A DNA stretch of 41,305 bases, taken from positions 1-41,305 of the forward strand of contig CAIXYX010000140.1 in NCBI GenBank assembly GCA_903923795.1, given 5' to 3'. This stretch comes from an uncultured Candidatus Micrarchaeota archaeon (GTDB taxonomy: Archaea > Micrarchaeota > Micrarchaeia > Anstonellales > Anstonellaceae). The notes below the pieces were generated by a model. It had not been told where the DNA came from and ran no database searches. It was given only the letters and a program-made list of their open reading frames with translations. Shown one piece after another: positions 1,264 to 39,960 of the stretch. Each line of letters begins with the position of its first letter. Positions within the stretch are counted from its first letter, which is position 1. A program made the position numbers and the translations under genes.

Positions 1264-1380
1264 AGAATTCCCCAAGCGTTTGGGCTCTGCAAATGATTGT
1301 GATTAGGAACCCTAACAAATGGACTATGCACCGACGCCTTTTTTAATGCCTTAGCTGGACTATTGCCTGAGGGATAGAGC

Positions 1381-1851: not shown

Positions 1852-1867
1852 ATAATTCATTTGTTTT

Positions 1868-2149: not shown

Positions 2150-2267
2150 GGCATCAGCCAAAATGAAAAGGAGATTTTTCATTATAAACACCCCGAGGGT
2201 GACTTTCCGCTTATAGTATATTATTTTAAACATCAATATTCATATAATTAGATATAGAGGCGATGCT

Positions 2268-3904: not shown

Positions 3905-3956
3905 GGGAATCACGAGAGGGCGTTGCTCAAGGCAGGGCATCATGCCCGCAAAAGCT

Positions 3957-4853: not shown

Positions 4854-4877
4854 GGTCAGCACCCCATATCTGATTTG

Positions 4878-5948: not shown

Positions 5949-6040
5949 AGGGAATCACCAGATGAATGGATAATCAGTTCATAGACGCCAAAATCTTTAA
6001 TAGACGCGTTAGAAGGGCCAAGACACTCGAGCCAGGATAA

Positions 6041-6883
6041 TTAGTCATACAATACGGTTGTGCCGCCTATGCCGAAGAAGTTCAAGGTTAGCATTACGGC
6101 GAAGAGCAGCAAGAGGACGATGAACGCGCTGCGGATATGCCCGCTCGACACATGCCCCTTCGATAAAGCGATGGAGCCAAAGAATGAGCCGATGGCAGCG
6201 GCGATGCCCGTGCCGAGGAGGAGAGCGACGTTTATCGGTCCGATGAACATGAGATGGCCCAAGAGGCCCAATATGGATGCAAGCAGAGTGCACACGTGCG
6301 AGAGGATGGCGGCGCGCTTTGGAGTCATGCCGGATTCAATGAGAAACGGCACAAGGAATACGCCGCCGCCGATGCCGAGTGTGCCTGAGAGAACACCGGT
6401 TGTGCCGCCCATGGCGGCTCTGCGCATGGCAACACCGGCTGCCTGCCCGCCGGTTTCCTCGAGAAAGCCCGCCTCTCCCTCGGCCAATCTGGGTTTGGGT
6501 TTGCTGATTTTCGACCAGGTTATCATCCGCACGGCGATTGCGAAGAGGGCGAGGGCGAAGAGGCCGATGATGATATGCGGGGGGAGCATCTGCGCGAACC
6601 ACACACCCAGCGGCGCGCCGAGGAAAGCGCCGGCGAAGATGAAGGCGGCCGATTTGTATTCTTTTGCTGTGAGAAGGCCGACGCGGTGGAAGTTGAAAGA
6701 GGAGATGGCGGTTGTGATGACGTTCAGGGACAGGCCCACTAAGATGGCCATATCTATCGGGATGCCGAGCCAGAAGAAGATGGGCACATAGATGGAGGCG
6801 CCGCCCAAGCCAAGGACGGCGAAGATGCCCGAGAGGAAGAGGACGAGGATTGGGGCGATGATTATTGGATCCATGGAAATCAT
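6041..6883 (-). CDS. TauE/SafE (TSUP) family permease
   Basis: Repeated GLGGA..VP and GIGGGVFLVP motifs with about 8 TM helices; ATGA overlap with the gpmA stop. Confidence 0.9.
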   Translation of the reverse strand: MISMDPIIIAPILVLFLSGIFAVLGLGGASIYVPIFFWLGIPIDMAILVGLSLNVITTAISSFNFHRVGLLTAKEYKSAAFIFAGAFLGAPLGVWFAQMLPPHIIIGLFALALFAIAVRMITWSKISKPKPRLAEGEAGFLEETGGQAAGVAMRRAAMGGTTGVLSGTLGIGGGVFLVPFLIESGMTPKRAAILSHVCTLLASILGLLGHLMFIGPINVALLLGTGIAAAIGSFFGSIALSKGHVSSGHIRSAFIVLLLLFAVMLTLNFFGIGGTTVLYD

Positions 6884-7491
6884 TGTTCTAATATTTCCTT
6901 GGCGATGATTTTCATGGACGAGTCGAATTCGTAGACATAGGAGGTGCCAGTAGGGATTTCGAGCGCCATCACCTGCTCGGGCGAGAGTTTATCGAGATAC
7001 ATGACGATGGCACGAAGCGAATTGCCGTGCGCGGCCACGAGCACATTATTGCCGGCTGCGAGATTTTTGGCGATATTGGACTTGTAGAATGGAACCACGC
7101 GCGCTGCGGTGTCGGCGAGGCATTCGCCGTTCGGCGGGCGCACATCATAGCTTCTCCGCCAGAGCTGCACCTGCTCGGGGCCGTATTTGACGCGCAGGTC
7201 ATCCTTGTTCAAGCCCTGCAAATCACCGTAATGCCGCTCGTTTAGGGCCGCGTCTTTCAGCACAGAGATATTTTTCTGGTTAAGATCGGTCAGTATGATG
7301 TCGAGTGTGTCCTGGGCGCGGATGAGAGCAGAGGTGTAGGCCTTATCGAAACGATAGCCGTTGAGGGCGGCGGCGGCCTTGCTCGCCTCCTTCTCCCCTT
7401 GCGGCGAGAGCTTGACATCTATCCAGCCAGTAAACCTGTTTTGGAGGTTCCATTCAGATTGCCCGTGGCGCACAAGCACAAGGTATGCCAT
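6880..7491 (-). CDS. gpmA: 2,3-bisphosphoglycerate-dependent phosphoglycerate mutase
   Basis: LVRHGQSEWN.NRFTGW.D, LNERHYGDLQGLNK, WRRSYDVRPP, AHGNSLRA, IPTG. Start MAYLVL at 7491. Confidence 0.95.
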   Translation of the reverse strand: MAYLVLVRHGQSEWNLQNRFTGWIDVKLSPQGEKEASKAAAALNGYRFDKAYTSALIRAQDTLDIILTDLNQKNISVLKDAALNERHYGDLQGLNKDDLRVKYGPEQVQLWRRSYDVRPPNGECLADTAARVVPFYKSNIAKNLAAGNNVLVAAHGNSLRAIVMYLDKLSPEQVMALEIPTGTSYVYEFDSSMKIIAKEILEQ

Positions 7492-7513
7492 GATGAGAGG
7501 TAGTCGAAGAAGA

Positions 7514-7520
7514 TTTATAA
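7514..7520. promoter_or_regulatory. Putative bidirectional TATA box between gpmA and the 1465-aa gene
   Basis: TTTATAA centred in a 54-bp divergent gap, about 23-26 nt from both ATGs. Confidence 0.6.
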
Positions 7521-7545
7521 CCGGTGTCTTGGCATTGGGAAGCAT

Positions 7546-10500
7546 ATGGCGGATTTGAAGGCACCGAAGAGGATTCTTCAGAGCGACTCACAGAACTCCC
7601 TGCCCGTGACGACGATGGAGGAGAACCCGCAGTTGATTGATCTGCTGCACAACCCCTCCAAAGCATATGACCACTTCACCGAGCTGAAGGAAGCGGTTGC
7701 CAGCAGTACCGCCGTGCATCCGAATTACCTGAAAGTTGTGCCGAGCATGAACAACGATAAAAATGTCAAGTCCGGCGAAGTGAAAAACACGCAAGCAAAG
7801 AAAGAAACCTCATTAAACTGCAATCAGGCCATGCAGAAGATTGACCAGTTCTATTCTCTCTATGCTTCCGAGTTGGACAGTATAGAATATGGCAAGAGCC
7901 TGCAGAATGTTCAGGATACATGGACTTCGGGCACTAATTCGCAGAAAGAGGGTCTTTCGTCCTCCGGCGCGCAGATGGACAATCTGGACCCGTTCAAGAC
8001 ACAAAGCACGCCAACGCAATTGGCGGAATCATTTGACGGATATTCAAAATACTCGAAGGCGAATATCGAGAAGAAGGTGGCGGAATTTACAACAGAGGAT
8101 GAGAAAAAGAATTATGTGCTAAACCTCCTGAGCGAGATGGCGGGAGTCGAGGGCGTGGTCCGCTCGATGCGGGCCGAGAAATATATGGCCGGCGCCTATG
8201 ATTTTGGCAAAGATTCCAAAGAGGAGGTGAGGCGCAACCTCGCAGCATGGCTGATTGGCACCCACGCGACGGCAGAATCGATGGCAGGGGAATTGGAGAA
8301 GAGCAAGAACGCGAAAAACCCGAACAGCGTTTATCATGATGCGTGGCTTCTGCTCTACGCCAAAAGCGACAGGGCGTCAGTTGCTTGGGGTGCCAAGAGC
8401 TTGTATGATGCATTAGGCGACAATTGGGAAAATCTTGGCAGAGATGAGCGGAGCATTGACAAAGTCATAGATATGTGCAAAGACATACAGAAAACGCAGG
8501 GCCGAGTCATGGAAGATTTGGCGCATCAGGAAAATGTGGAGATAAACGGATGGACTTTGGCATTTGTAAGTGAGCATGGGCAGGCCATTGTGGATGTGGG
8601 TGTGGCGGCGACCTCGGCGCTCCTCCTCCAGCCCGAGTTGAGCATGTATTATTTCGGATTCCGCGGCGCAGGCATGGCGGTGGAGGGGGCGGTTGAGGGC
8701 GACTGGGGAAAAGCCTTCACAGGCACGATGATGGCGATTCCGCTGGTGGGCAGGGCAGGCAGGGTGCTGGCACCGTCGAGCAAGATGATGAAATGGGGCA
8801 CGAGCGTGGCCGGTGCAACTTCGGCTACCGCATTCACCGGCATGATGGCTTATGACAGCACCAAACTGCTTTACGAAGCCAGTCACACATATTTCACGCT
8901 GTCGGATTATGTTGGAATAGCGCAGAATGCCGCATTTGTGGCAGGAATACAAATGACTGAGAAGATGCTGACGGGCACGAAGAAAGTTATGGCGCAAAGA
9001 AAGAGGGCGGCGGCAAAGCAGGCAGATAAAAATGACAAGACGGTGAAAACAAAGAAGCCTGTGCAGGCATATGCGGAAGCCAAAGACGCACCAGAGACCA
9101 AGTCGATTTATTCTGCAAAAGATTACATGGCTGACCCGTATTCGGGAGCGCGTTTTCGAAAGCTCTATTCGGCTGTCGAGAATGTGGTACCCGGCATTAT
9201 TGAGAAAGACCCCGGCACCGCTCTTTATCTGAACATCATCGCCAAGAGTTTCAGTGACAGAGGAGTGAATGCGCTGCTTAGCGAGATGAACAAAATCAAA
9301 TGGCTGGATGGGAAGAGGGGCAAACTGAAAATGGCATCGCCTGAGGAGCAGAAAGACGGGCTTTGGAAGCTGCTGCTCGATTCCGAACATCTGGAAGATA
9401 TACAGAAAAGAGGCGGCGAAAATCCGTATCCGGTGGATAAACTGTATTCATTCCCGGCCAACATGCTGGACCCGATTATTTGGTTTGGGAAGAAAATCGG
9501 GGCTGCGGCGAAGAAAACCGCGAAGAAGATGAAAAAGAAAGCGAAGCAGACTGCGCCGGTCGCGGAACAACCAACGCAGGAGAAGAGAGTGGAGATCTCC
9601 AAGTTACCTTACGCGAATGAGGAAACCGCCGGCATACCCAAAGCCCTACAGCCCGACGAGGTCAAAAAACCCTTCATCGGCCTAAAGGAGACGAAACCGC
9701 TCCTGCGCCAGGCCATGCTGGACAACCCGAACAAAGACGTCAAGGACATGGTCAACGAGCACTGGGCAGACACCGAAGGACTCCTCAATATGATGTGGAA
9801 TGTGTGGGACAGGAAGATGGTGGATGACTATGCCGATTATATCCGCAAGTGCACCACCGCGGGAGAGGTGGCTGAACACGGCTGGGCGCTCATCGAGCAG
9901 TTCGAGAACCGCTCACGGCGGACCATGATCAGGACGAAGACAAAGACCGGGGTGGCGGATGGCGGCGAGAATGCCCTCGCCCAATTAAGCGACAAGCGCA
10001 AGGTGCTCTTCCATCACTTAAAGAACGATATAGACCATCCATTGGTCATCTGCGAACTTGCCCGCGGAAGGCTTGAAAAGAATGGATTTTCAAAAGAGGC
10101 GCAGGCTATCAAGGAATACGAGGACAAATTGCGGCTCATCTCGCGTGGAGAAGGCAAGGCCGGCGGCCAGATGGGCGCGACAGATTATTACAAACAGATG
10201 ATCTCGAGCGATGCGACGAATGGCACGCTTGCCGCAAACGGCCAGATGGTAATCGATTTATCGGTTGAAGCCGAGAAAGTTTTTGGCGAAGCTTACCAGG
10301 TGCTCAAGAAGATGAATGAGAATGGGCCGACCAAAGGCCTGCTGAGCGGCAGCCTCGAGGATGTGGAGCCCCGCAAGATAATGGACGAACACGGAGCCGA
10401 GACGAAAATCCCCGGATGGTTCGAGAGGATTTCCAAAAACCGCCAGGAAGTCATCAACCCCAGCGAGATGGACATAAAGACCGAGGATATCGGTTCGCTC

Positions 10501-11943
10501 ATCAAAAGCAGATTCGCCGATGTGACTGCGCCTGCCACGAAGATATATGCAGAGGTCGATGGAGATTTGCTCATGCAGGCATTTGATAATGTGCTCGGCA
10601 ACGCGGATAAATACAAGGCGGCGGGCACGAAAGTCAAGGTGGATGTGCTCGAGCGGGATGGCCTGATTCACATACAGGTATCGAACAGGGTGGAGGCGGG
10701 CGGGGGCATAACAAATGAGATGTGGAACCGAGCGTTGCGGGGGGAGTCCAACGACAATGCGACCCCGAACTCGACAGGGGTGGGCATACTGGGGAGCATC
10801 GCAGTCATAGATGGATTCGACGGGCGCATAAATCTCGTTGACGGCGGCAGGGAGAGCGGAACCACCACAATTGAAATCACGGTGCCAAGCAACGAGGAGG
10901 CGGGAGGGAATCTGATGAATTCTGGCCCGACTTCCGGGACCTCGCAGAGCCTGTCCATGCAAAACGCCCTCTCTGATGTCGGGTACACATCCGCAGAAAG
11001 CCAAAGACTGGCGCAGGCTAATATGCAGAGATATCTGGATGACTTCTATCCAGGTGTGAAGATAGAGGACGTGCAGTTCCTGGACTTCGGCGGAGTCAAC
11101 GACGTATATGCCCTGAGATACAAAGACGAGACTCTCGGGCTCATCAAGGGGAGCAGCCTGGTGGCAGATAAATTCATGCTGGATTTGTATCGCAGGATGG
11201 GGTTCGACCAGGGATACTCGATAATGCGCTATGGGAATATCGATATCATGCAGTTTGCGGAAGGCACAAGCCTCTCCGCATGCATACGCGGCGGGCATAT
11301 CCGCTCGGTGCGCACCGGCGATGATGGCAAGCTGATTAGGGAGGATGTCCCGCTTGACGAGAGGATCATGTCCGAGCTGGCATATGAGTACGGGAGGCAG
11401 ATGGCGGTGCACGAAGCATTCTCGCTTCATGACCCCCATGGAGACAATTTTCGGGCAGTCATGATAGACGGCAAAGCCAAAATCATCCGTATAGATATGG
11501 AAGGTGCTACGATCGGAGGGATGGTGTCTGAGGATTATGTCGACGCATTCTCGGACACGCATGCGTGGACCAGCCCTGACGGCCAGTATTACGCCCAGCT
11601 AAAAGCCGGCTTTGAGGCGCAGGCCCAGCTCATCTACGATAATAGGGCCGAGCTGATTCAAAGGCTCGGAGAGGTTGAGTCGGAACTTGGTTCTGATAAG
11701 ACGCTTCCGCATCAGATAGAAGGAATCTCCCAGGCCACAATCGGCACCAGCTTCCCGACCACGATTGCGCGCCTCGCGCGGACACCGCAGATGGCATGGG
11801 AAAGTTTCTTAAAAGAGGGGAAGACGGGGGAGAGCAATGAATACGTTCAACCCGACTTCGACGAGGAGGCGTATCGCTATTATCAGACAATGCATCCGGA
11901 TTGGACCCACGAGCAGATAATGAGGGAGATGGAAGAGGAATGA
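7546..11943 (+). CDS. 1465-aa multidomain protein: helical N-terminus, Gly/Ala-rich membrane region, HisKA/HATPase_c-like core, C-terminal PI3K/HipA-like kinase domain
   Basis: Membrane region ~8550-8960 includes AIPLVGRAGR. H-box-like FHHLKNDIDHPL (~10008); N-box LLMQAFDNVLGNADKY (~10567); G-boxes GGGI and STGVGI; TTIEITVP. Then GGVNDVY, LIKG, DPHGDN (11431) and IDME (11491). Confidence 0.75.
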   Translation: MADLKAPKRILQSDSQNSLPVTTMEENPQLIDLLHNPSKAYDHFTELKEAVASSTAVHPNYLKVVPSMNNDKNVKSGEVKNTQAKKETSLNCNQAMQKIDQFYSLYASELDSIEYGKSLQNVQDTWTSGTNSQKEGLSSSGAQMDNLDPFKTQSTPTQLAESFDGYSKYSKANIEKKVAEFTTEDEKKNYVLNLLSEMAGVEGVVRSMRAEKYMAGAYDFGKDSKEEVRRNLAAWLIGTHATAESMAGELEKSKNAKNPNSVYHDAWLLLYAKSDRASVAWGAKSLYDALGDNWENLGRDERSIDKVIDMCKDIQKTQGRVMEDLAHQENVEINGWTLAFVSEHGQAIVDVGVAATSALLLQPELSMYYFGFRGAGMAVEGAVEGDWGKAFTGTMMAIPLVGRAGRVLAPSSKMMKWGTSVAGATSATAFTGMMAYDSTKLLYEASHTYFTLSDYVGIAQNAAFVAGIQMTEKMLTGTKKVMAQRKRAAAKQADKNDKTVKTKKPVQAYAEAKDAPETKSIYSAKDYMADPYSGARFRKLYSAVENVVPGIIEKDPGTALYLNIIAKSFSDRGVNALLSEMNKIKWLDGKRGKLKMASPEEQKDGLWKLLLDSEHLEDIQKRGGENPYPVDKLYSFPANMLDPIIWFGKKIGAAAKKTAKKMKKKAKQTAPVAEQPTQEKRVEISKLPYANEETAGIPKALQPDEVKKPFIGLKETKPLLRQAMLDNPNKDVKDMVNEHWADTEGLLNMMWNVWDRKMVDDYADYIRKCTTAGEVAEHGWALIEQFENRSRRTMIRTKTKTGVADGGENALAQLSDKRKVLFHHLKNDIDHPLVICELARGRLEKNGFSKEAQAIKEYEDKLRLISRGEGKAGGQMGATDYYKQMISSDATNGTLAANGQMVIDLSVEAEKVFGEAYQVLKKMNENGPTKGLLSGSLEDVEPRKIMDEHGAETKIPGWFERISKNRQEVINPSEMDIKTEDIGSLIKSRFADVTAPATKIYAEVDGDLLMQAFDNVLGNADKYKAAGTKVKVDVLERDGLIHIQVSNRVEAGGGITNEMWNRALRGESNDNATPNSTGVGILGSIAVIDGFDGRINLVDGGRESGTTTIEITVPSNEEAGGNLMNSGPTSGTSQSLSMQNALSDVGYTSAESQRLAQANMQRYLDDFYPGVKIEDVQFLDFGGVNDVYALRYKDETLGLIKGSSLVADKFMLDLYRRMGFDQGYSIMRYGNIDIMQFAEGTSLSACIRGGHIRSVRTGDDGKLIREDVPLDERIMSELAYEYGRQMAVHEAFSLHDPHGDNFRAVMIDGKAKIIRIDMEGATIGGMVSEDYVDAFSDTHAWTSPDGQYYAQLKAGFEAQAQLIYDNRAELIQRLGEVESELGSDKTLPHQIEGISQATIGTSFPTTIARLARTPQMAWESFLKEGKTGESNEYVQPDFDEEAYRYYQTMHPDWTHEQIMREMEEE

Positions 11944-12035
11944 CGATGAGAGATGACTGGAGGAGACGAAAATGACGAGTGATGCAAAAGCAGCAGCATG
12001 TCGGTATTAAATAATCAAAAAACACAGGTGTGCGC

Positions 12036-12692
12036 ATGAAGAAAAACACAGTCAGCGTCGATCGGCTGCGCAGGTTCGGCGACGAGACGCAAGGCATAGG
12101 CTCGAGGCTGAGCGTATTGGCCAAAATAGGTCCGGCGAAGGAACTGATTGACAGGAGAGTTGACGGGAAGAGCCAGAGTATCGGAAGCGTGTGGGTCGAG
12201 GCAGGTGGCTGGATGAATCCGGACACCGTGAAAGAGGCACCGCAGATAGATGCCTCGCCAATGCTGAACACGCTGATGATGCTGGCCAGAAAGCACGGCA
12301 TAAGAGATGTTGGCTTTGGCAATACGGAGCGCATCATGCTCGGGGCATCCTCGCTCGAATTGCCGAAAAACGCGTTCGCTGGATTTGTTGTGTGGAACGC
12401 CACCAGACCCGAGAGCTTCCATGACGGGCTCGACGCTTTCCTCTCATATATCACGGACGCGACTCCGCAGACTTGGGCGCGGCGCCATGGCGCGAAGAAT
12501 TCGGCGCTGGCGATGTTCGCGGACGGCGTGGCGAATGATGGCGTGGCATTCTTCTCATCGGTGCCGGTGATGAGCGATGAGGCGCTGGCAGGGAAGTTCA
12601 AGACATTCTCGCTCCATCGAAAAGACATCGAGAATTTCGCGGCGGATGAGAAGACAGAGATTTGCGCGGCGGTGGCGAGAAATCAGGCGTGA
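12036..12692 (+). CDS. Hypothetical protein
   Basis: ATG preceded by AGGTG and TATTAAATA; globular composition; no recognised motif. Confidence 0.7.
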   Translation: MKKNTVSVDRLRRFGDETQGIGSRLSVLAKIGPAKELIDRRVDGKSQSIGSVWVEAGGWMNPDTVKEAPQIDASPMLNTLMMLARKHGIRDVGFGNTERIMLGASSLELPKNAFAGFVVWNATRPESFHDGLDAFLSYITDATPQTWARRHGAKNSALAMFADGVANDGVAFFSSVPVMSDEALAGKFKTFSLHRKDIENFAADEKTEICAAVARNQA

Positions 12693-15789: not shown

Positions 15790-15888
15790 TGAAGCGGAGA
15801 TTTGGGAAAGTGTGATGGGGGAATTTTGGAAGTGCGATGATAATGATATATTCTTCTTTGATGTAAATTTTCTATGGAGTCGATTGAT

Positions 15889-16848
15889 ATGACTGAGAAA
15901 AATTCCTCAAATGTTTATGATGTGCTCATCGTCGGCGCGGGCTGCGCGGGTTCTGGCGCGGCCATGTATGCCGCCCGCTTCGGGCTCAAGGTGCTTATGA
16001 TTGGCGAGATGCCGGGCGGCACCATCACCACCACGCACATCGTCGAGAATTATCCCGGATTTGAGAGCATAACCGGCATGGAATTAGGCGAGCGGCTGCT
16101 GCACCATGCACAAAGCTATGGGGTCGAGATGAAGATGGAGAAAGTCGTGAAGGTGGAGAAGAAAAATGAGTTATTCGCCACAACCACAGACTCGGATGCC
16201 ACATATCTCTCTCGCACCATTATCGCCGCCACCGGCGCCGAATGGAAGAAATTGGGCGCGCCGGGCGAGCGAGAGTTTGCGAACAAGGGAGTGCATTACT
16301 GCGCGCTTTGCGACGGCGGATTCTACAAAAATAAAGTGATTGCGGTCATAGGCTCGGGGGATTCGGCAGCAAAAGAGTCCCAACTATTGGCCGAGTACGG
16401 CTCGCGCGTGTATGTGTTTGTGCGCGGGCCTGCGCTTCATGGCGAGCCCATCAACAATGCGAGAGTGGCCAAGAATCCAAAGATTACGGTTTTCACAGAC
16501 GTGCAGGTTACGGAAATTTTGGGCAATGAGAAGAAGAGGGCGGGATTTTTGAAATTGACAAAACCCTGTGCGCCGGTTGGCGCTAAACCAACCGATAAAT
16601 TCCCCATCGACGCCGTTTTCGTGCTGATCGGGCACGCTCCGATTAGCCAATGGGCCGCCCCATTGGGCGTGGCACTGAACAAGAAAGGCGAGATTGTCAT
16701 AGATCGGGAGAGCCGGACCAATGTGCCCCACCTCTATGCGGCAGGAGATGTGACGAATGGCATATTCAAACAGGCCATTGTGGGCGTGTCGGAAGGGGTG
16801 TCGGCGGCGTATTCGGCATACACGGATTTGAAGAAGGGGGAAAAGTAG
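15889..16848 (+). CDS. trxB: Thioredoxin reductase
   Basis: GAGCAG FAD site, VENYPG, GVHYCALCDG (CxxC), GSGDSA, AAGDVT. Start 15874 or 15889. Confidence 0.92.
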   Translation: MTEKNSSNVYDVLIVGAGCAGSGAAMYAARFGLKVLMIGEMPGGTITTTHIVENYPGFESITGMELGERLLHHAQSYGVEMKMEKVVKVEKKNELFATTTDSDATYLSRTIIAATGAEWKKLGAPGEREFANKGVHYCALCDGGFYKNKVIAVIGSGDSAAKESQLLAEYGSRVYVFVRGPALHGEPINNARVAKNPKITVFTDVQVTEILGNEKKRAGFLKLTKPCAPVGAKPTDKFPIDAVFVLIGHAPISQWAAPLGVALNKKGEIVIDRESRTNVPHLYAAGDVTNGIFKQAIVGVSEGVSAAYSAYTDLKKGEK

Positions 16849-16943: not shown

Positions 16944-19900
16944 ATGTTCACCCCGCGTCGTGGTTTGGCAGGCCGGCAGGAGAAGCCGTTCGAAGGAAAA
17001 GAAATGGGTCGGTCGTCGTCCGGGACCCGCGGGGCGCTTGCCATGCGCGCGCAGACAACTGTTGAATATATCGTGCTTTTCGCCGCCATCGCCGTTTTGG
17101 TGCTCGTTCTTGCAAACCTTTTGGGAGTGCTGCCCAAGAACTCCGGAATGCAGATAGAACAGTCGAAGGCATATTGGAGCAGTCAGGCTGGACCCATCAA
17201 AGTGAAGGACTGGTCGATGGCTACAATAAAACAGGACTCGCCGTTGGCTGCGGATGCCAACTTATCACTTGTGCTCTCTAATCCCACACGAGACACCATC
17301 ATTATCAAGGCCATCACGCTTGCGCCGGGCAATTTCAGCTCGGTTATGGATGCGTCAGGGAATTGGATGGGCACAAGCACATCTCTTTCCATTGTCCTGC
17401 TGCCGGGTGAGGAGAGGACTATTGTTGCGCTGCACCATGGAGTGGGGGCTGGCGCGTATATCCCGGCCGAATACTATTCGCAGATATTGACGCTCACATA
17501 CTCTACCGGACTTGGCACTTCGCGCGAGACGGGCGCATTGCCGCTTGTTGGCAGCAACAGGTATATTGTCGGGAGCGTTGGCGCCTGCCCGCCGCCGCTG
17601 ACCAGCTGTGGTGGCGGAGCGTGCGCAGAGGCTGGCCACTGTTGTGGAAGCGGTGCTTGCAATTCCCAGCAGACATGCTGCGGAGGGAGCACATGCTGCA
17701 ACAGCGGATCTGAGAGCTGCCAGAGCGGTTCGTGCGTGGCTGTTTCCGGCTGCAATGCGCCGAATTTCACATGCAATGGCATATGCTGCGATGCGGCTTC
17801 GTATAATCTGTGCCAGGGAGACACGCAGTGCGCATATTGTGACAGAGCAAAGACATGCGGCGAATATTGCTGCGGGGATTCGGAAACATGCGTGAATTCT
17901 GGTGCCGGAAGCTATGCTGGAGCATGCCAGATTGTTACACCTGCATGCACGGCCCCGAACACCACGTGCGGCACATGGTGCTGCGCACAGGGACAGACAT
18001 GCGTGAACAGCAGTGCGGCCACGTATGACGGAGCATGCCAGGCTGCGGCGACCTGCGTATCCCCGAACATCACATGCGGGGCTTGGTGCTGCGCGGACGG
18101 GCTAGGATGCATGAATGACACTGCCAGCACATATGAGGGGGCTTGCCAGGAAGCGATGTTCGAATGCCCTGAGCAGTACGACATTTGCGGGATATGGTGC
18201 TGCGAGCATGGAGACACATGCGATCCGGACGGATTGACATATGATCAGGCATGCCGAGTGGATAGAAACTGCACTTCCCCAAACTCGGTGAAATGCGGAA
18301 CCAACTGCTGCCTGGACAATCAGACATGCAATGAGACGACTCGGGTGTGCGTGGACACTAAATCTTGCTCAGACCCATCAGGGTGGAATTCGTATAATCA
18401 GACATGTGTAAATGACTGCGATGCCACGACGCAGTACTGTGATGGCACTAGTTGCCTGTGCGCCAATCGGAGTCTGATAGCCTGCAGCTCGAATTCGTCG
18501 GATTATGATGCGTCTACGATGACATGCATCGATGACTGTGATCATTCGACCCAATACTGCAATGGAGCTTGCCAGTGCGCCCCGAGCACGAATGTTCCAT
18601 GCAATTCCGGCATCGGAGTGTATGACTCGAGCAGGACGTGCTTGGACAACTGCGACGGCAATACTTATTGTGATGGCAATTGCTTGTGCCAGCCGCGCCC
18701 GGTAGTATACTGCAGCAACAGCCCGGATTTCAACGCGGGCACGAGGATATGCGCAGACGACTGCAACCGCAGCCTGTATTCTGGCTGCGCCGGAGATTGC
18801 ACGTGCATACCCCTTGACTTGACCAGATATTGCAACGCGCACGGAGTTTTCGATGGCGGCAGTCTGCAATGCCTGAGCAATTGCAGTGATTATGCAAATG
18901 CTTTCGGTTTTGATCCAAACACTCTGACGTGTATCGACAACTGCAATTCGGCGACCCAGTACTGCGACCCCAACACCTGCCTGTGCGACATCAAACAACC
19001 GGTGCAATGCGCGAATTTCGCCCGGCCATTTGACTTCAACAATCCCGGCACATACTGGAATAATATGACGATGAGCTGCCAGGATAATTGCGCAGTACTT
19101 GGTTCTGATGTGCAATGCGACGGCTCGAACTGCACCTGCTGCTATGCAGAAGGTCATCAGTGCGATATCACACCGAACTCGCCGCCGCCCGGCTGCTGTG
19201 GTGGACTGGTCTGCAATTCCTCAGGGATGTGCGCACCTGCGCCGCCAGTGATACTATGCTCGAACAGCTCGACTCCCTTGCTACCGGTTCCGGGAGATCC
19301 GGAATATTATGATAGATACTGCCAGGACGATGTCGCGCAGAAAGTTGGAACAGGATATGCATGCAACTTGAACGGCTGCAATTACTATCCGGTTTGCGGA
19401 TACAACACTACATACTGCGCAGAGGGAGCGTGCTGCTATGCAAACCAGAGCTGTGTGAATGGGGCGTGCGTGAACTCGTGCGCGGCTGGCACCACGTATT
19501 GCAATGATACGAACGGAAATTACGTTGGTTGCTGCGCCGCAGGCTCGGTGTGCAATTCGCTCAAGGGAATGTGCGTGGTGAATTCGACATGCTCGGGCGC
19601 GAATCTGTCATTGTGCGGCAATGCGTGCTGCAACCTCTCGAGTCAGGCATGCAGCGGCGGCGCCTGCATAAACTGCGCCGCCGGGATGGGCTCGTGCGGA
19701 AGCACATGCTGCGCTGCATCTGATTGCCGCACAGGCGGAGTTTGCTGCCCGAGCAGCAGATGGGTCAGTGCCACGAACACTTGCTGCGAGATAGGGAATG
19801 TGAGCTCGAATGGCCACTGCTGCCCGGCGAACCAGACATATGCCAACGGCGGATGCTGCCCGGCAGGGCAGATTTATTCAAATGGAGCATGCTGCGCGAT

Positions 19901-21137
19901 CAACACGTGGAATGGCACGATGTGCTGCCCGAGCGGGCAGTATGCGGTGAATGGCACCTGCCAATGCAGCGGCGGAAACCTCACATGTGGCTCGACTTGC
20001 TGCAATCCGACCACGCAGTCGTGCAATGAAGATTCGGGCACTTGCACAACATGTGGAGGCGGCCAGACAATGTGCGGGGGCTCATGCTGCGCTGCAGGGA
20101 ATTGCCGCAATGGAAATGTATGCTGCCCAGCCAATAGATGGAATGCCAGCACGAACACATGCTGCCCGGCCGAGAGATGGAACAGCAACACGAACACATG
20201 CTGCCCGGTCGGGCAGGTGAATGGGAATGGAGTGTGCTGCCAGGCGGGAAGATGGAACGCGGGTACGGGAGTATGCTGCCCAGACAGCAAATGGAGTGGA
20301 AGTCAGTGCTGCCCGGAGGGCAAGACCCCGTATTTGGGCACTTGTTTGTGCAATGGAAGAATAACCTGCAACTACGAATGCTGCAATTCGACAAGCCAGG
20401 GAGATGCGACAGATCAGGTATGCAATATGACGGGGCATATGAATTACAGCACTGGCACCGATTACTACACTTATGCCTGCGTGACCTGCCCGGCAGGAAC
20501 AGATAAATGCGGAACTAGCTGCTGCGCGAGCGGAAGATGCTTTGGCGGAGGAGCGGCCTGCTGCCCAGTTAACACGACGTATTTCAGCTATGGCGCGACA
20601 TGCTGCCCGAATGATCGAGTGGTTAATGGCGCATGCTGCCCGAAAAATAAAGTGATTGCGGGCGGAGTCTGCTGCGATGCGGCGTATGCACACGGAGACG
20701 TGTGCTGCCTCCCCAACCCTTACAACGAAAGCCAATATGCGATGTATTATGGGTATACGAACGGAAACCGCTGGACTGGCTCGACTTGCTGTCCATATGG
20801 ACAGGCATATGTGAATGGAAGCTGCTGTGCGCTGGACCATATTGCCCTCACAAACTCGAATTTGGGAGGATACGCATACTGCTGTGATTCAGGCAGCTGG
20901 GGCACCCCGGGCAGATACTTCGGTGATTCGATATGCTGCCCAGTGGGGACAACGTTTTCATGGACGGGCGGAAACCTGGATAGAGCAGACTTGAACATCT
21001 CAAACGTATGCTGCCCGAACGCACGCTGGGTGCATGATCCACACGGATATGATATCTGCTGCCCGGTCGGAAAAACGATCACGAACGGAGTTTGCGAGTG
21101 CTGGCTGAATAGATATGGAGAATGCGTGACGTCATGA
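16944..21137 (+). CDS. Giant Cys-rich surface protein with class III (prepilin-type) signal peptide
   Basis: RA|QTTVEYIVLFAAIAVLVLVL cleavage motif; about 180-aa pilin-like domain; Cys-rich repeats from ~17586 to the end; TTTTTAAA at 16915-16922. Confidence 0.85.
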   Translation: MFTPRRGLAGRQEKPFEGKEMGRSSSGTRGALAMRAQTTVEYIVLFAAIAVLVLVLANLLGVLPKNSGMQIEQSKAYWSSQAGPIKVKDWSMATIKQDSPLAADANLSLVLSNPTRDTIIIKAITLAPGNFSSVMDASGNWMGTSTSLSIVLLPGEERTIVALHHGVGAGAYIPAEYYSQILTLTYSTGLGTSRETGALPLVGSNRYIVGSVGACPPPLTSCGGGACAEAGHCCGSGACNSQQTCCGGSTCCNSGSESCQSGSCVAVSGCNAPNFTCNGICCDAASYNLCQGDTQCAYCDRAKTCGEYCCGDSETCVNSGAGSYAGACQIVTPACTAPNTTCGTWCCAQGQTCVNSSAATYDGACQAAATCVSPNITCGAWCCADGLGCMNDTASTYEGACQEAMFECPEQYDICGIWCCEHGDTCDPDGLTYDQACRVDRNCTSPNSVKCGTNCCLDNQTCNETTRVCVDTKSCSDPSGWNSYNQTCVNDCDATTQYCDGTSCLCANRSLIACSSNSSDYDASTMTCIDDCDHSTQYCNGACQCAPSTNVPCNSGIGVYDSSRTCLDNCDGNTYCDGNCLCQPRPVVYCSNSPDFNAGTRICADDCNRSLYSGCAGDCTCIPLDLTRYCNAHGVFDGGSLQCLSNCSDYANAFGFDPNTLTCIDNCNSATQYCDPNTCLCDIKQPVQCANFARPFDFNNPGTYWNNMTMSCQDNCAVLGSDVQCDGSNCTCCYAEGHQCDITPNSPPPGCCGGLVCNSSGMCAPAPPVILCSNSSTPLLPVPGDPEYYDRYCQDDVAQKVGTGYACNLNGCNYYPVCGYNTTYCAEGACCYANQSCVNGACVNSCAAGTTYCNDTNGNYVGCCAAGSVCNSLKGMCVVNSTCSGANLSLCGNACCNLSSQACSGGACINCAAGMGSCGSTCCAASDCRTGGVCCPSSRWVSATNTCCEIGNVSSNGHCCPANQTYANGGCCPAGQIYSNGACCAINTWNGTMCCPSGQYAVNGTCQCSGGNLTCGSTCCNPTTQSCNEDSGTCTTCGGGQTMCGGSCCAAGNCRNGNVCCPANRWNASTNTCCPAERWNSNTNTCCPVGQVNGNGVCCQAGRWNAGTGVCCPDSKWSGSQCCPEGKTPYLGTCLCNGRITCNYECCNSTSQGDATDQVCNMTGHMNYSTGTDYYTYACVTCPAGTDKCGTSCCASGRCFGGGAACCPVNTTYFSYGATCCPNDRVVNGACCPKNKVIAGGVCCDAAYAHGDVCCLPNPYNESQYAMYYGYTNGNRWTGSTCCPYGQAYVNGSCCALDHIALTNSNLGGYAYCCDSGSWGTPGRYFGDSICCPVGTTFSWTGGNLDRADLNISNVCCPNARWVHDPHGYDICCPVGKTITNGVCECWLNRYGECVTS
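20121..20207 (+). repeat. 39-bp in-frame tandem repeat encoding CCPAxRWNxxTNT
   Basis: tgctgcccagccaatagatggaatgccagcacgaacaca followed by tgctgcccggccgagagatggaacagcaacacgaacaca, then tgctgcccg. Confidence 0.85.
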
Positions 21138-21324: not shown

Positions 21325-21969
21325 ATGGAAAACGAGTCTATTTTGCAGCAAAAGATGCAGGCGCTAAAGACGGGCACGACTACGGTCGGACTGGCCTGCT
21401 CTGACGGCGTGATTCTGGCCTCGGACAGACGGGCCACAATGGGATATTTCATCGCGTCAAAAGACGTGCAGAAGGTTTTCCAAATTGACGAGAAGATAGC
21501 CATGACGGTGGCAGGCTCGGTGGCGGACGCGCAATTCTTGGTGCGTTTGCTCCAATCCGAATGCCGCCTGTATAAATTACGCTACGGGCGCAACATGACG
21601 ACAAAGAACGCCGCGTCGCTCTTGGCGAACATGATGTTCCAATACAAGTATTTCCCATACTGGGTACAGCTCATAGTCGCAGGATATGACGAGAAGGCCG
21701 AAGTGTATTCGATTGACATGCTGGGCGGAGTGACTGAGGAGAGATTCACCTCCACTGGCTCCGGCTCGCCTGTCGCATACGGAGTCATTGAAGAGGGCTT
21801 CAAGTCGGGCGGTGCGATAAAGGAGAATGCCGCCGTGGCTGCAAAAGCGATTGCCATGGCCATGCGCCGCGATGCGGCCACGGGCGAATATGTCGACGTG
21901 GTGACCATCACCAAATCGGGCTTCAAACGCCTCGAGAAAAGCGATGTAGTGAAATTGCTCGAGAATTAG
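21325..21969 (+). CDS. psmB: 20S proteasome beta subunit
   Basis: Propeptide ending KTG|TTTVG, ASDRRAT, AGSVADAQ, TGSGSPVAYG, RDAATG. Confidence 0.97.
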   Translation: MENESILQQKMQALKTGTTTVGLACSDGVILASDRRATMGYFIASKDVQKVFQIDEKIAMTVAGSVADAQFLVRLLQSECRLYKLRYGRNMTTKNAASLLANMMFQYKYFPYWVQLIVAGYDEKAEVYSIDMLGGVTEERFTSTGSGSPVAYGVIEEGFKSGGAIKENAAVAAKAIAMAMRRDAATGEYVDVVTITKSGFKRLEKSDVVKLLEN

Positions 21970-22032: not shown

Positions 22033-22128
22033 CATTTATCATTTGTTTTCATGGACATGATTTGTCCAGTCAAACACTTGCAGTCGTCAGACAAATTTAA
22101 ATTAACGTCATATTCGAGAGGTTTTCTA

Positions 22129-24021
22129 ATGGATTTCAAGGAAATAGAGAAGAAGGCGATGGAGCTGATTCCGGCCGAATGCAAGCTCACAAAAGTCGAG
22201 GCCGAAGGCTTGGACGTAGTCATATATCTCAAGGACTTGCACGCTTTTTACGCCAATGACCAGCTTATTCGAAAATTGGCCGGAGCCCTGCGCAAGCGGG
22301 TGCTGATTCGCGCCGACCCATCCGCGCTAAAGCCGCCTGAAGAGTCGCTCATCGCCATACGCGAGATAGTCCCCGCAGACGCGGGAGTGAGCGAAGTGAG
22401 GTTCACGCCAGAATTCGGCGAGGTCATGATTGAGGCATTGAAGCCCGGCCTTGTGGTTGGAAAGGGCGGCGGCACGCTCAAGGCCATTGTTGAGAGGACG
22501 GGCTGGGCGCCGCAGGTGCAGCGCCAGCCTACGATGGCATCCTCCACGGTGAAAGGCGTGCGGGCATCTTTGCAGAAAGAGGCCGGCACGAGGAAGAAAT
22601 TTTTGCAGAATTTGGGCAAAAAGATATGCGGGCCGATTCTCAAATCAGACTATGTAAAAGTGACGGCGCTGGGAGGATTTCAGGAAGTGGGCCGCTCGTG
22701 CGCTCTTGTCGAGACGCCGCATTCGCGTATACTCATAGACTGCGGCATCAACCCCGAAACTTTCGAGCCCACAAAGGCGTATCCTTACCTCTCGGCCATG
22801 AAACTTGAGCTTGACAAGATAGACGCAGTCGTGCTCACGCACGCGCATTTGGACCACTGCGGATTCGTTCCCTACCTCTTCGCATACGGCTATGACGGGC
22901 CGGTGTATTGCACGCCGCCGACGCGCGACTTGATGGTGCTTTTGCAGATGGACTACATTAATTTGGCGGCGCGGCAGAAAGAAGGAGCAGCACCATATGG
23001 CGTGAAGGACATCCAAAAGCAATTGGCGCACACCATATGCTTTGACTACGGCGAAGTGATGGACATCACGCCCGAGGTGAAATTGACATTCTACAATGCA
23101 GGCCACATTTTGGGCTCGGCGCAGGTGCATCTTCACATCGGCGATGGACTGCACAATCTTGTCTTCACAGGAGACATCAAGTACGGCTTCACACGCTTAA
23201 CCGACCAGGCGGCCACGCAGTTCCCGCGCCTCGAATCGCTTTTCATGGAGTCGACATACGGCGGGCACAACGACATCATGCCGAGCAGGTTCGACACCGA
23301 GAAAAGGCTCACCGAACTGGTGAAGAGTGTCATCAGCCGAAAAGGCAGGGTGCTGATTCCGGTGTTCTCTGTGGGCCGCTCGCAGGAATTGATGATGGTG
23401 ATGGAGGAATTCGCGGCCCGAAATCCGGATCTGAATTTCCCGGTTTATATCGACGGCATGGTGCTGGAGGCTTCGGCGATTCATACGGCCTACCCAGAAT
23501 ACTTGAGGCACAACATACAGAGGCGCGTGCTCTCCAACGACTCGCCGTTCGAATCCAAGATATTCGTGCCCGCCAAAGGCGAGCGCAAGGACATCGTCGA
23601 GGGCGACCCGTGCGTCATATTGGCGCCATCAGGCATGATGACGGGAGGCCCGGTGCTCGATTACTTCCGCATGATGGCCGAGGATGAGAAAAACGCGCTC
23701 TTCTTCGTCGGATACCAGTCTTCGCTGTCAGTGGGAAGGAAGATACAGCGGGGGCTCAAGGAGATTCCGGTGATGGGCGATGACGGCAGGAGCAACAGCA
23801 TCAAAATCAACATGGAAGTGGACACAGTCGAGGGATTCTCGGGCCACTCGGACCGCAACCAGCTCATGCATTTCGCCAAAGCCATTCGGCCATCGCCACA
23901 GCGGATATTCACGCTGCATGGAGATGAAAATAAGTGCGAGGATTTGGCGCGAAGCATAAGCAGGCAGTTCAACGTCGAATGCAGGGCGCCGATGGACTTG
24001 GACAGCATAAGGCTGAAATAA
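22129..24021 (+). CDS. fttA: beta-CASP ribonuclease aCPSF1 / transcription termination factor FttA
   Basis: N-terminal KH domains (KPGLVVGKGG), GGFQEVGRSC, HAHLDH, AGHILGS, MESTYG, GFSGHSD. Conserved archaeal adjacency to psmB. GAGGT precedes the ATG at 22129. Confidence 0.95.
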   Translation: MDFKEIEKKAMELIPAECKLTKVEAEGLDVVIYLKDLHAFYANDQLIRKLAGALRKRVLIRADPSALKPPEESLIAIREIVPADAGVSEVRFTPEFGEVMIEALKPGLVVGKGGGTLKAIVERTGWAPQVQRQPTMASSTVKGVRASLQKEAGTRKKFLQNLGKKICGPILKSDYVKVTALGGFQEVGRSCALVETPHSRILIDCGINPETFEPTKAYPYLSAMKLELDKIDAVVLTHAHLDHCGFVPYLFAYGYDGPVYCTPPTRDLMVLLQMDYINLAARQKEGAAPYGVKDIQKQLAHTICFDYGEVMDITPEVKLTFYNAGHILGSAQVHLHIGDGLHNLVFTGDIKYGFTRLTDQAATQFPRLESLFMESTYGGHNDIMPSRFDTEKRLTELVKSVISRKGRVLIPVFSVGRSQELMMVMEEFAARNPDLNFPVYIDGMVLEASAIHTAYPEYLRHNIQRRVLSNDSPFESKIFVPAKGERKDIVEGDPCVILAPSGMMTGGPVLDYFRMMAEDEKNALFFVGYQSSLSVGRKIQRGLKEIPVMGDDGRSNSIKINMEVDTVEGFSGHSDRNQLMHFAKAIRPSPQRIFTLHGDENKCEDLARSISRQFNVECRAPMDLDSIRLK

Positions 24022-30254: not shown

Positions 30255-30379
30255 CTAATCCCTTTGATGCTTGAATTAGGCAGATTGCCCGTTTTAATAC
30301 CGCCATAGGCGGGTTCTGAGCGTTTGGATTGCGAGAAATGACCAATCGGCTTTTATTTGCGCAATACATCTCTCATCTT

Positions 30380-31606
30380 ATGGCGGGAATACGGATTCTG
30401 GCGTTGTTTTTGCTTCTCTTCGCGTCGATGGCATGCATAGAGCAGAAAACAAACGAAACGAATCAGAATGCGACCTCGGATTTATCGAATTCGACCCAGA
30501 GCTATTCGAATCTGTCGGATAATGCAACTGCCGCGCCTTATTTCCACCTCAACACCGTGCCCCCGCAGAGGATAAAAAATCTGGCGCGGGGAGTGAATGT
30601 GGCCAACTGGTTCTGGTATCCGGCATATAGCGATTCGGCGCATTTCGAAGAATATATGACAGACACAGAATTGGAATGGCTGAATGCACGGGGTTTCACT
30701 TTCATCAGATTGCCCGTGGACCCGAAACTGCTTTATTTGGAGGGCATGCCCGGAACGCCGAATGAGACGACTCTTGCACACATCAATAATGCCACAGCAA
30801 GAGTGCTTGCCCATAATCTCTCTATTGTCATAGAGCTGCACGAGAATGACTGGAGCCGTTTGGAGAATGACGCGGCATATGATGACGGATTGGTGAAATT
30901 GTGGGGCGCTATGGCGAAGAACTTGAGCCGTTTCGATTCGGACAAAGTTTTCTTCGAGCCGGTGAATGAGCCGCGTTATTACACAAATCCTCTCGCATGG
31001 TTTTCGCTGCAAGACAGATTTTTGAGCGCTATTCGCGCATCGGCGCCGAATAACACTATTTTCGCCACCGGGCCTATCATGTCATCAGTGCAGGGCACAA
31101 TGCTCAATGAGCCGGTCGATGATGGAAACATCATCTACACATTCCATTTCTATGACCCTGCCGCGTTCACCCATCAGGGCGCGGGATGGCTGCCGGGCGG
31201 ATTCGACCAGATAAAGAATTTGGCTTATCCATATGAGGAGGCGAATTGCGGGGAAGTGGCGGCCAACACCACCCCCGCGCTGGCAAAGGCTGCGGTGAAA
31301 CAGTATTGCGCGGATGAGTGGAATGCGACAGTTGTGCGCAAGAAGATTGGGGTGATTGCCGATTGGGCAAAAGAGAAGAATGTCACCTTGCTGGCCGGAG
31401 AATTCGGCACGTATGAAGTGGTGACTCCTCCGGCTTCGCGCGCTGCTTGGCTGAAAGATGCGAGGATGACATTTGATGAGAATAAAATCGGCTGGTGCGT
31501 GTGGAGCTATGACACGGGCTTTGGCATAGGGGCGAAATTAGGCGAGGATGGAGAAGTGCATGCAGATGAGGCGGCCATGGATGCGCTTGGCTTGGGGCAG
31601 AAGTAG
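30380..31606 (+). CDS. Secreted/lipid-anchored glycoside hydrolase family 5 (cellulase-like)
   Basis: Signal peptide with SMA|C; RGVN, FIRLPV, FEPVNEP (acid/base), TFHFYDP..FTHQGA.W, GEFG (nucleophile), GWCVWSY. Confidence 0.92.
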   Translation: MAGIRILALFLLLFASMACIEQKTNETNQNATSDLSNSTQSYSNLSDNATAAPYFHLNTVPPQRIKNLARGVNVANWFWYPAYSDSAHFEEYMTDTELEWLNARGFTFIRLPVDPKLLYLEGMPGTPNETTLAHINNATARVLAHNLSIVIELHENDWSRLENDAAYDDGLVKLWGAMAKNLSRFDSDKVFFEPVNEPRYYTNPLAWFSLQDRFLSAIRASAPNNTIFATGPIMSSVQGTMLNEPVDDGNIIYTFHFYDPAAFTHQGAGWLPGGFDQIKNLAYPYEEANCGEVAANTTPALAKAAVKQYCADEWNATVVRKKIGVIADWAKEKNVTLLAGEFGTYEVVTPPASRAAWLKDARMTFDENKIGWCVWSYDTGFGIGAKLGEDGEVHADEAAMDALGLGQK

Positions 31607-39042: not shown

Positions 39043-39960
39043 TTATTTCGCCTTGGCCATCTCGGCGGCGATTATCGTCTTGAAGCCCGGCTGGAGCTTC
39101 CCGGCGTTGTCGGTGTAGTTCTCGTATGGCAGGGCGCCGACAACCAATCTGCCGGTCACGATGTCGCCTTTTCTCACGCCGATGATGAAGCTGGGGGTTC
39201 CGCCCACTCCGGCCGCGCTGCCGGCTGCCTGCTGGGCTGCCAATGTGGCATCTTTGCCAGTGGCGGTGCAGTTGTTGAATTTGGCCATGTCGAGGCCGAG
39301 GGATTGCGCGAGGGTCTTCAATCCCGTGTCATCAGTCGTGCTGGTGTTGAATATCAGGTCGTGCATGGCCCAGTATTTGTTCTGGTCGCCTGCGCATTCA
39401 ACTGCCACGTGGGCGGGCTTGGCGGTCGGGTGCACGATGTAGTTGATGTGTATCATGTCGATTTGGCCGCCTGAGGCGTTCATGACCTGATGCATGGTGG
39501 GCTGCACCCTGACGCAGAATGGGCACTGGAAGTCGGAGAATTCCACTATGGTGAGTTTGGCGCTTGCGTTGCCCAAGATGGCACGGCCGCTCACATTCAC
39601 CACGCCGGTCTGCACGGGCGCTGGGGCTGACGGGGCGGATGGAGCCTGCTGGCCTGTTCCGCACCCGTTTTGCGCGCCATTGTTCGCCGCATTGGCTGCT
39701 GCATTATTCGCTGCATTGGCTGCCGCGTTGGCGGCTGTGCCGGTCGGAGCGGTGAGGTTGATGGTGTTGTTCACCGGCGCATTGACCACGACGGTGAAAC
39801 TCTTGGCTGAGAGGGTTTCATTGAGCGAGCTCATGGAGAAGTATATGGAGGCGGAGATGAGGGCGCCGACAAGAATCAATGAGAAGGCCAGAAGATATGT
39901 CGGATTGGCCTCGGACGAATGTGAATGCGTATGGCCCGCATATGACTTATCCTCGCTCAT
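39043..39960 (-). CDS. Membrane-anchored DsbA/BdbD-family thiol-disulfide oxidoreductase
   Basis: N-terminal TM helix, Ala/Asn linker, IVEFSDFQCPFC, A.ECAGDQ.KYW.MHD, GVGGTPSF (cis-Pro); GGAGGT SD. Confidence 0.92.
   Translation of the reverse strand: MSEDKSYAGHTHSHSSEANPTYLLAFSLILVGALISASIYFSMSSLNETLSAKSFTVVVNAPVNNTINLTAPTGTAANAAANAANNAAANAANNGAQNGCGTGQQAPSAPSAPAPVQTGVVNVSGRAILGNASAKLTIVEFSDFQCPFCVRVQPTMHQVMNASGGQIDMIHINYIVHPTAKPAHVAVECAGDQNKYWAMHDLIFNTSTTDDTGLKTLAQSLGLDMAKFNNCTATGKDATLAAQQAAGSAAGVGGTPSFIIGVRKGDIVTGRLVVGALPYENYTDNAGKLQPGFKTIIAAEMAKAK

Follow-up and report, generated by a model that had tools for sequence, protein, structure and literature searches.

The Tailed Pilin-Like Gene

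The stretch of DNA analysed here, called the window, spans positions 1 to 41,305 of contig CAIXYX010000140.1 (GenBank assembly GCA_903923795.1) from an uncultured Candidatus Micrarchaeota archaeon of the Anstonellaceae, belonging to a group of tiny symbiotic-type archaea. The genome of the window (G000; 1.24 Mb, 88% complete) was compared with others of the same family; genomes, contigs, loci and related proteins are designated below by G, C, L and P numbers. The gene in question is a single open reading frame (ORF), confirmed by an ORF and translation check of the window, which encodes a pilin-like protein with a very long cysteine-rich tail. The gene and its parts, given in amino acids (aa), are as follows.

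16944..21137, + strand: tailed pilin-like gene, 1,397 aa; alternative starts at 17004 (M21) and 17043 (M34)
16944..17051, + strand: hydrophilic leader ending R35-A36, predicted prepilin-peptidase cut before Q37 (sequence; PF04021)
17052..17132, + strand: hydrophobic alpha1 helix, aa 37-63, with Gln+1 and Glu+5; the only membrane/pilus-core segment (hydropathy, model)
17052..17582, + strand: Cys-free pilin-type head, aa 37-213, long helix and beta-sandwich (model, Atlas, family profile, fold search)
17583..17828, + strand: Cys-rich segment next to the head, aa 214-295 (62% to P0004 across 131 residues from the start of the tail)
17829..18356, + strand: block a, aa 296-471, five units of about 36 aa, C-x6-C-x3-CC-x5-C-x11-C, the last degenerate (Cys spacing, profiles)
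18366..19142, + strand: block b, aa 475-733, six six-Cys units of about 38 aa with EGF-like Cys spacing and no CC (Cys spacing, profiles)
19143..19583, + strand: less regular Cys-rich segment, aa 734-880 (self-comparison of repeats)
19584..19967, + strand: higher-order unit d1, aa 881-1008, six-rung CC ladder (model)
19965..20351, + strand: higher-order unit d2, aa 1008-1136, CCPxxRWN ladder (49% to d1)
20451..20723, + strand: shortened unit d3, aa 1170-1260 (comparison with d1 and d2)
20559..21134, + strand: CC ladder of the far end, aa 1206-1397, its loops longer and rich in aromatic residues; putative binding end (repeat comparison)

Translation may begin at M1, M21 or M34, and the mature protein has 1,361 aa whichever applies. 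By sequence count, aa 1-213 contain no Cys, while the tail (aa 214-1397; 1,184 aa) contains 192, or 16.2%, in agreement with the first-pass annotation of this DNA, which had read from the letters alone a 1,397-aa ORF with a tail of about 1180 aa and 15-20% Cys. Both adjacent Cys pairs (CC; 42 observed against a shuffle mean of 26.8) and N-x-S/T sequons (36 against 17.5) are enriched in the tail, with 0 of 1000 shuffles as high in either case, so that the many sequons noted earlier exceed expectation about twofold. Because aa 37-63 form the only hydrophobic segment (Kyte-Doolittle peak 2.9; downstream maximum 1.36), the protein lacks a C-terminal anchor, again as annotated. The tail has only 5 CxxC motifs and 11 His.

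Identical pieces from four pond-metagenome DNA runs of one study, which may be the source of the assembly, tile most of the gene, and none spans it whole. One read-contig joint skips 397 bases between repeats; as its shorter arm is 20 letters long, the joint was left out of account. No RNA sequencing run was listed as containing the gene.

Signal Peptide and Pilin-Type Head

The protein begins with a class III signal, R35-A36|Q37-T-T-V-E41, followed by the hydrophobic stretch. In a genome-wide profile search, the class III family PF04021 was matched at 24.8 bits, a borderline score against a cut-off of 23.7. Gln at +1 and an acidic residue at +5 are described as features of EppA-processed pilins in the relevant text of PMC4187195, and Q37 and E41 fit this rule. 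The head was modelled with a predicted local distance difference test (pLDDT) score of 91.3 from 14 sequences, giving helices at 2-28 and 35-49 and a beta-sandwich. A structure search with this model returned the archaeal pilins 8fk7 (Z 6.9, root-mean-square deviation (rmsd) 2.8, 89 aligned) and 6w8u (Z 6.5, rmsd 3.3, 97 aligned) and the archaellin 5tfy (Z 6.5, rmsd 3.1, 100 aligned), a fold compatible with a pilin. In the Atlas search, the head was assigned at 0.95 to Microcaldota clusters of 169-213 aa, one of which has PF04021 in 20% of its members.

A profile of the head finds matches in 42/42 family genomes, mostly short proteins, and covers many of the family's class III proteins of 150-260 aa along their length. 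Against PDB sequences the same profile gave chance matches only, and a related-locus search using the head gave no confirmed locus. Signal and head are conserved in all members of the head family, and the head is the most conserved part of the long proteins. The motif, the hydrophobic helix and the family of short pilin-like proteins agree with the class III signal and pilin-like domain annotated at first pass and support the reading that the protein is of class III, is exported and has a probable pilin-type head.

Cysteine Repeats of the Tail

Self-blastp of the protein listed no internal repeat pairs; the repeat units were therefore defined by Cys spacing and profiles. The first-pass annotation had counted about four copies of block a, and four full units do occur, followed by a fifth, degenerate one (aa 296-471), with the exact motifs CGxWCC and [YF]xGAC each present three times. 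Block b, put at about five copies, has its C.D[DN]C motif five times but comprises six units (aa 475-733), only three of which carry TQYC. The short CCP..RWN units of block c hold for CCP, found 16 times with a CC every 11-13 aa, and less well for RWN, found only three times. The higher-order unit, said to occur about three times, has two full copies (aa 881-1008 and 1008-1136) and a shortened third (aa 1170-1260). Repeat copies are 68-81% alike at the DNA level, a likeness by which the repeats appear to be old. Block a is common to G167, P0002, P0003 and P0004, with scores above the control maximum, and two copies of block b occur in G248.

No Pfam family was matched in five segments of the tail, nor in the tails of six long relatives of the head family and P0002, and the window's tail gave no NCBIfam match and no PDB sequence match. 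The likeness to STIG1, EGF or EB modules that the first-pass annotation raised as a question found no support in sequence matches. PF04885 and PF01683 were absent from 5/5 tail segments at E <= 1, in a search whose HMMER filters drop weak matches. Block b has a six-Cys, EGF-like spacing with C-x-C at 6 sites; it gave no EGF Pfam match at E <= 1, and its profile scored no higher than 8.1 bits on EGF segments of teneurin type, against a control maximum of 19.6.

Unit d1 was modelled with a pLDDT of 91.2 as short paired beta-strands forming stacked beta-hairpins. In a structure search over 48,161 chains, only 3 reached Z >= 2. The best was zebrafish granulin AaE (6cku; Z 3.0, rmsd 2.9, 46 aligned), a weak match that lies on the CC ladder, and the third was conotoxin MiXXVIIA (6ppc; Z 2.2); Foldseek of d1 found nothing at E <= 0.001. 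A pattern scan with the usual granulin spacing of 12 Cys gave 0 matches, strict or loose, in 12/12 proteins, and no granulin Pfam match was found in the tail. The granulin module is defined by 12 Cys (PMC4527844), and AaE is described as a four-hairpin stack and MiXXVIIA as a mini-granulin in the portions of PMC7463432 that treat them. The tail has no match to the galaxin repeat PF24748, and the Atlas search with aa 885-1260 gave a best value of 0.77, which is not usable. Unit d1 is thus weakly granulin-like, and membership of the granulin, galaxin, EGF or STIG1 families is not supported.

A search with the ladder (aa 885-1259) returned 33 non-self proteins, including membrane proteins with a leishmanolysin domain, a nemertean vWA protein and small secreted proteins. 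In P0005 and P0030, the CC ladder stands behind the leishmanolysin domain. Four of the 33 start like bacterial pilins, P0007 and P0018 with TadE over the cut-off and P0006 and P0036 type IV-like by eye, and six carry the galaxin repeat PF24748, four of them over the cut-off. P0032 and P0033 were set aside as apparently spurious, and matches among Cys-rich low-complexity sequences may be convergent. The description of the repeats as eukaryote-like therefore stands as a resemblance only, since the tail has no Pfam family and native codon composition and the ladder also occurs on bacterial pilin-type proteins. Recent transfer of the tail from a eukaryote was rejected, as the GC content of third codon positions is 0.62 in head and tail alike against 0.63-0.73 in six other genes.

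Pilus, Glycosylation and Disulfide Machinery

G000 encodes one A24 prepilin peptidase, on contig C78, which is typed by PF01478 membership only and has no NCBIfam match. It also encodes three T2SSE pilus ATPases, next to which lie six platform matches; the ATPase is followed by two platform genes on contigs C11 and C29. With the peptidase, ATPases and platforms that the first-pass annotation expected all present, the objection that the genome lacks type IV pilus machinery falls away. The C11 locus (609-12525) also contains Cys-poor ORFs of 1,593 and 1,147 aa around the ATPase and its two platform genes. A motif scan found 11 class III candidates in G000. On contig C13 (L045:72-1504), two tandem, closely similar class III proteins (KG|QSAMEYLMTYGW) are candidate major pilins.

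One STT3/AglB oligosaccharyltransferase and two DsbA-like proteins are encoded, and VKOR had no match in the 88%-complete genome. One DsbA-like gene lies in the window.

39043..39960, - strand: membrane-anchored DsbA-like protein with CPFC and an N-terminal hydrophobic segment; candidate disulfide catalyst, its link to the tailed pilin being putative

The glycosylation proposed earlier agrees with the enriched sequons and the encoded AglB, and the tail is probably N-glycosylated. Likewise, the class III signal and the membrane-anchored DsbA-like proteins are in line with an exported, disulfide-bonded protein, the oxidation of which is predicted.

Relatives and Mosaic Tails

The same head occurs alone, with a short Cys tail, with a Gly-rich cargo, or with a Cys tail of 880-1,200 aa. 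Long versions that are complete, measuring 1,066-1,406 aa counted from the signal, were found in 8/42 family genomes among the matches listed, outside which lie 106 weaker head-profile matches; G000, G161, G167, G403, G279, G170, G248 and G002 have one each. In G287, G242 and G271 the heads are cut by contig ends, and no long version was found in the 23 genomes of genus g3 among the matches listed. The paralogues with the same pilin head and variable tails that the first-pass annotation advised looking for were thus found, together with orthologues. Complete tails have 13-16.5% Cys and no anchor.

Several further proteins carry related architectures. On contig C95 of G000 (L046:889-2125), a paralogue cut by the contig end joins the same head to a few CC units and a Gly-rich domain. 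It follows a gene for a 1,478-aa secreted protein, relatives of which precede head-only pilins in G161 and G357. Directly before the long gene of G167 lies one for a short pilin (L026:5882-6568) that shares the head and has 11 Cys in its tail, possibly a partner or a duplication. Two more proteins of class III type, with a Cys-rich tail of another kind, are encoded in G239 (L034:2613-4319 and L034:66-1172), the former with weak conotoxin/EB-like Pfam scores.

In G000, G161 and G167 the long gene occupies the same slot, which is bordered in the window by two genes.

15874..16848, + strand: thioredoxin-reductase-like gene (trxB), left border of the variable slot (Pfam, neighbour comparison)
21325..21969, + strand: proteasome subunit gene (psmB), which closes the slot on the right; fttA/aCPSF1 comes next, at 22051-24021

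The flanks of the slot share 72-81% DNA identity among these three genomes, whereas the DNA of the slot aligns only over 177 nucleotides of the G161 head. With Cys masked, the window tail aligns with P0004, marginally with P0003, and not with G161. The G161 tail shares its first ~190 residues with G170 and G002 and the next ~970 with P0002 and P0003. The heads of P0002 and P0003 group with that of G167 (100/100), and a single clade of G161, P0002 and P0003 was rejected in the head tree by the approximately unbiased test (p-AU 4e-6). G002 and P0040, the latter ~110 residues longer, are 100% identical over columns 1-600 and then 21-88% identical up to column 1200; between G002 and P0041, identity falls from 99% to 63-89%. 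This mosaicism is explained by distal segments being exchanged or repeatedly replaced, with a possible contribution from chimeric bins. The internal blocks agree with the evolution by repeat expansion proposed earlier; between relatives, however, the main mode appears to be exchange or replacement of tail segments.

A Downstream Neighbour with a Type IX Secretion Tail

In 5/7 assessable loci, from three genera, the gene directly downstream of the long pilin, 15-145 bp away, ends in PF18962, a Bacteroidota-type tail of the type IX secretion system (T9SS). The loci are those of G161, G279, G170 and G167, all over the cut-off, and G002, under it.

PF18962 neighbour genes: L022:10625-12391; L023:10205-12214; L024:4351-6369; L026:11037-12524; L027:38-1171

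The neighbour is not adjacent in the G000 and G248 loci, and the G403 locus could not be assessed as its neighbour is cut by the contig end. Two of the five pairs are convergent, the flanking genes differ among the five, and four of the neighbours compared by blastp are not alike. PF18962 occurs in 28/42 family genomes, and the five genomes with an adjacent pair have only 2-4 matches each. In a sample of the class, it was found in 15/21 other family genomes against 4/229 outside the family. The single PF18962 protein of G000 (~660 aa; contig C2, L051:1243-3228) is not near the tailed pilin. Kin genomes are not independent in these adjacency counts, which would look no different if surface genes simply shared a hot spot. 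The literature search found no report linking Micrarchaeota with type IX secretion.

Proposed Mechanism and Alternative Explanations

We propose, with a probability of roughly 0.6, that the protein is a low-copy modular minor pilin whose stalk, glycosylated and laddered by disulfides, would be displayed on a type IV pilus tip, and the exchangeable far end of the stalk may bind a host cell or a surface. The protein would be exported unfolded through Sec, N-glycosylated by AglB, oxidized outside the cell by a DsbA-like protein, cleaved before Gln37 and extruded by one of the three ATPase/platform sets. At the tip, a stiff stalk could reach tens of nanometres and present its variable end to the host or surface, and specificity might be renewed by recombination of tail segments behind the conserved head. 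The adhesin reading of the first-pass annotation is in this way partly supported, by class III export, the pilin-type head, the machinery, the sequons and AglB, the DsbA-like proteins and the kin with variable tails; its eukaryote-like character is the part reduced to resemblance.

Several observations count against the pilus-tip proposal. By hmmscan, PF04021 stays under its cut-off (22.4 bits for the head, 18.6 for the whole protein). The best structural matches of the head are unrelated Ig-like domains (Z 8.8-8.0), and because the archaeal pilins (Z 6.5-6.9) score below them, the fold does not amount to proof of a pilin. P0004 has His at -2, the Cys count is odd in 3/10 complete tails, sequon enrichment is clear in only 5/12 tails, and some of the tail mosaicism could stem from chimeric assembly in metagenome bins. 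The gene also stands alone between housekeeping genes, outside the three ATPase loci, and the +1 residue is Val instead of the canonical Gln in G167, P0002 and P0003. These last two points, together with a load of 1,184 aa that is very large for a pilin and the processing of non-pilin substrates by PibD (described in part of PMC4187195), suit a membrane-anchored surface stalk, in which the class III helix is an anchor only and never enters a filament, as proposed for Sulfolobus class III sugar-binding proteins; the function would still be attachment or recognition. Such a stalk is possible, if somewhat doubtful: the full globular pilin-type head is kept and most conserved, which is needless for a plain anchor, and stand-alone pilin genes are common in archaea according to the survey text of PMC4858521.

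Neither Pfam nor PDB sequence searches recognised a lectin or other binding domain in the tail, a further point against the proposed tip adhesin and one expected of a structural or protective element. In that alternative a glycan-dense rod, comparable to the galaxin framework, would act as a spacer, bundler or shield for the cell or pilus, and its far end would vary to escape viruses or predators instead of choosing hosts. Distal variation fits any outside selective agent, six of the 33 ladder matches carry the galaxin repeat (four over the cut-off), and di-Cys repeat proteins are discussed as framework proteins in the section of PMC2726143 concerned. We consider the rod unlikely, as no genome has more than one complete long gene among the matches listed, which suits a tip component better than a coat, the ladder recurs behind bacterial pilin-type N-termini, and the G403 tail is nearly free of sequons (1 against 8.3 expected), which itself also tells against the glycosylated stalk. 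The short distances, differing flanks and few PF18962 matches per genome described above would agree with a pilin that merely carries its T9SS-tail neighbour, the latter docking on it as the real adhesin or effector. This arrangement is decidedly improbable given the missing adjacency in the window and in G248, the two convergent pairs, the 12/23 g3 genomes that have PF18962 tails and no long pilin among the matches listed, the kinship of the genomes, and a shared insertion hot spot, which would also account for the adjacency. A broader scheme, in which the pilus-borne granulin-like ladder with recombining tips and the T9SS-tail neighbour form one host-recognition cassette, marking the family as episymbionts or predators of Bacteroidota/FCB with stalk alleles that set host range, is a long shot. 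A cytoplasmic, metallothionein-like metal-binding protein with a signal arising by chance would account for the high Cys content and the borderline PF04021 score. It is disfavoured to the point of being barely credible and was rejected on the signal and head conserved in all family members, the enriched sequons, the few CxxC and His of the tail and the hairpin-stack model of d1.

Comparison with Known Systems

The closest parallels are modular pilins such as Streptococcus sanguinis PilB (pilin and vWA) and PilC (pilin and ConA-like lectin) and CofB of enterotoxigenic Escherichia coli, and in S. sanguinis pilins with bulky modules act as adhesins, placed by modelling at the pilus tip, as set out in the parts of PMC8179133 and PMC9934059 dealing with them. 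The tailed pilin likewise combines a class III signal, a predicted pilin module and a grafted bulky C-terminal module at low copy, with tip display expected. It differs in its predicted archaeal Ig-like head and in its cargo, a mosaic, probably N-glycosylated 1,184-aa di-Cys array without a catalogued domain. Features of a modular pilin found here are the class III signal, the alpha1 helix as sole membrane helix, an extra C-terminal module absent from head-only proteins, and the machinery genes. The modular-pilin survey of PMC8179133 relied on a motif from bacteria, and 'archaea' appears nowhere in its main text.

The Epd (system 1) pili of Methanococcus maripaludis share with the present system Gln+1, acidic +5 and an ATPase followed by two platform genes (C11, C29), and system 1 is reported in Nanobdellati in the text of PMC13705601 on its distribution. 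Around the tailed gene, in contrast, there is no Epd-like operon or eppA; its neighbours are trxB and a proteasome gene, and the peptidase is on C78. The head is unmatched to EpdA-E, and no such stalk is described for Epd pili in the passages of PMC4187195 and PMC13705601 that cover them. With the granulin and mini-granulin fold, to which two of the only three matches at Z >= 2 belong, the ladder shares repeated CC pairs and a predicted beta-hairpin stack. It lacks the 12-Cys pattern, has a CC spacing of 9-12 instead of 5-8, is open-ended, and reaches only Z 3.0 and 2.2. Coral galaxins (PF24748; described in part of PMC2726143) are also secreted tandem di-Cys repeats of similar Cys content; the present protein differs in that it has no PF24748 match, is fused to a pilin head and is prokaryotic.

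By this comparison, the protein would work like S. sanguinis PilB and PilC, and we do not assign it to Epd pilins, granulins, galaxins, EGF or STIG1. The design is already known from bacteria; what is new is a long version in 8/42 family genomes among the matches listed, with conserved heads and mosaic tails, and a T9SS-type neighbour in 5/7 assessable loci, that of the window not among them. The archaeal surveys PMC4858521 and PMC13705601 mention, in the sections bearing on this, large adhesin-like and Cys-containing components and not Micrarchaeota. The literature search found no report of a cysteine-rich pilin in Micrarchaeota and no identification of the hosts of this family.

To our knowledge, little is known about the ways in which DPANN archaea choose and hold their hosts. 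A pilin present as one copy, its head fixed and its tip of 1,000 residues exchangeable, is a concrete candidate for a host-range determinant; metagenomes allow its alleles to be paired with hosts that co-occur, and its distal fragments can be expressed as probes. The findings would also extend modular pilins, surveyed in bacteria, to archaea and place a predicted open-ended di-Cys hairpin ladder on prokaryotic appendages; we know of this ladder being solved so far only in short eukaryotic modules.

Other Genes in the Window

Three other genes of the window may be recorded. A secreted-looking protein of the GH5 cellulase family, in a Micrarchaeota, is encoded at 30329-31606. The product of 37065-38339, which also looks secreted, combines an M64 peptidase domain with a short stretch rich in Cys. 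The gene at 7546-11943 encodes a 1,465-aa protein whose sole Pfam match is HATPase_c (aa 1005-1115).

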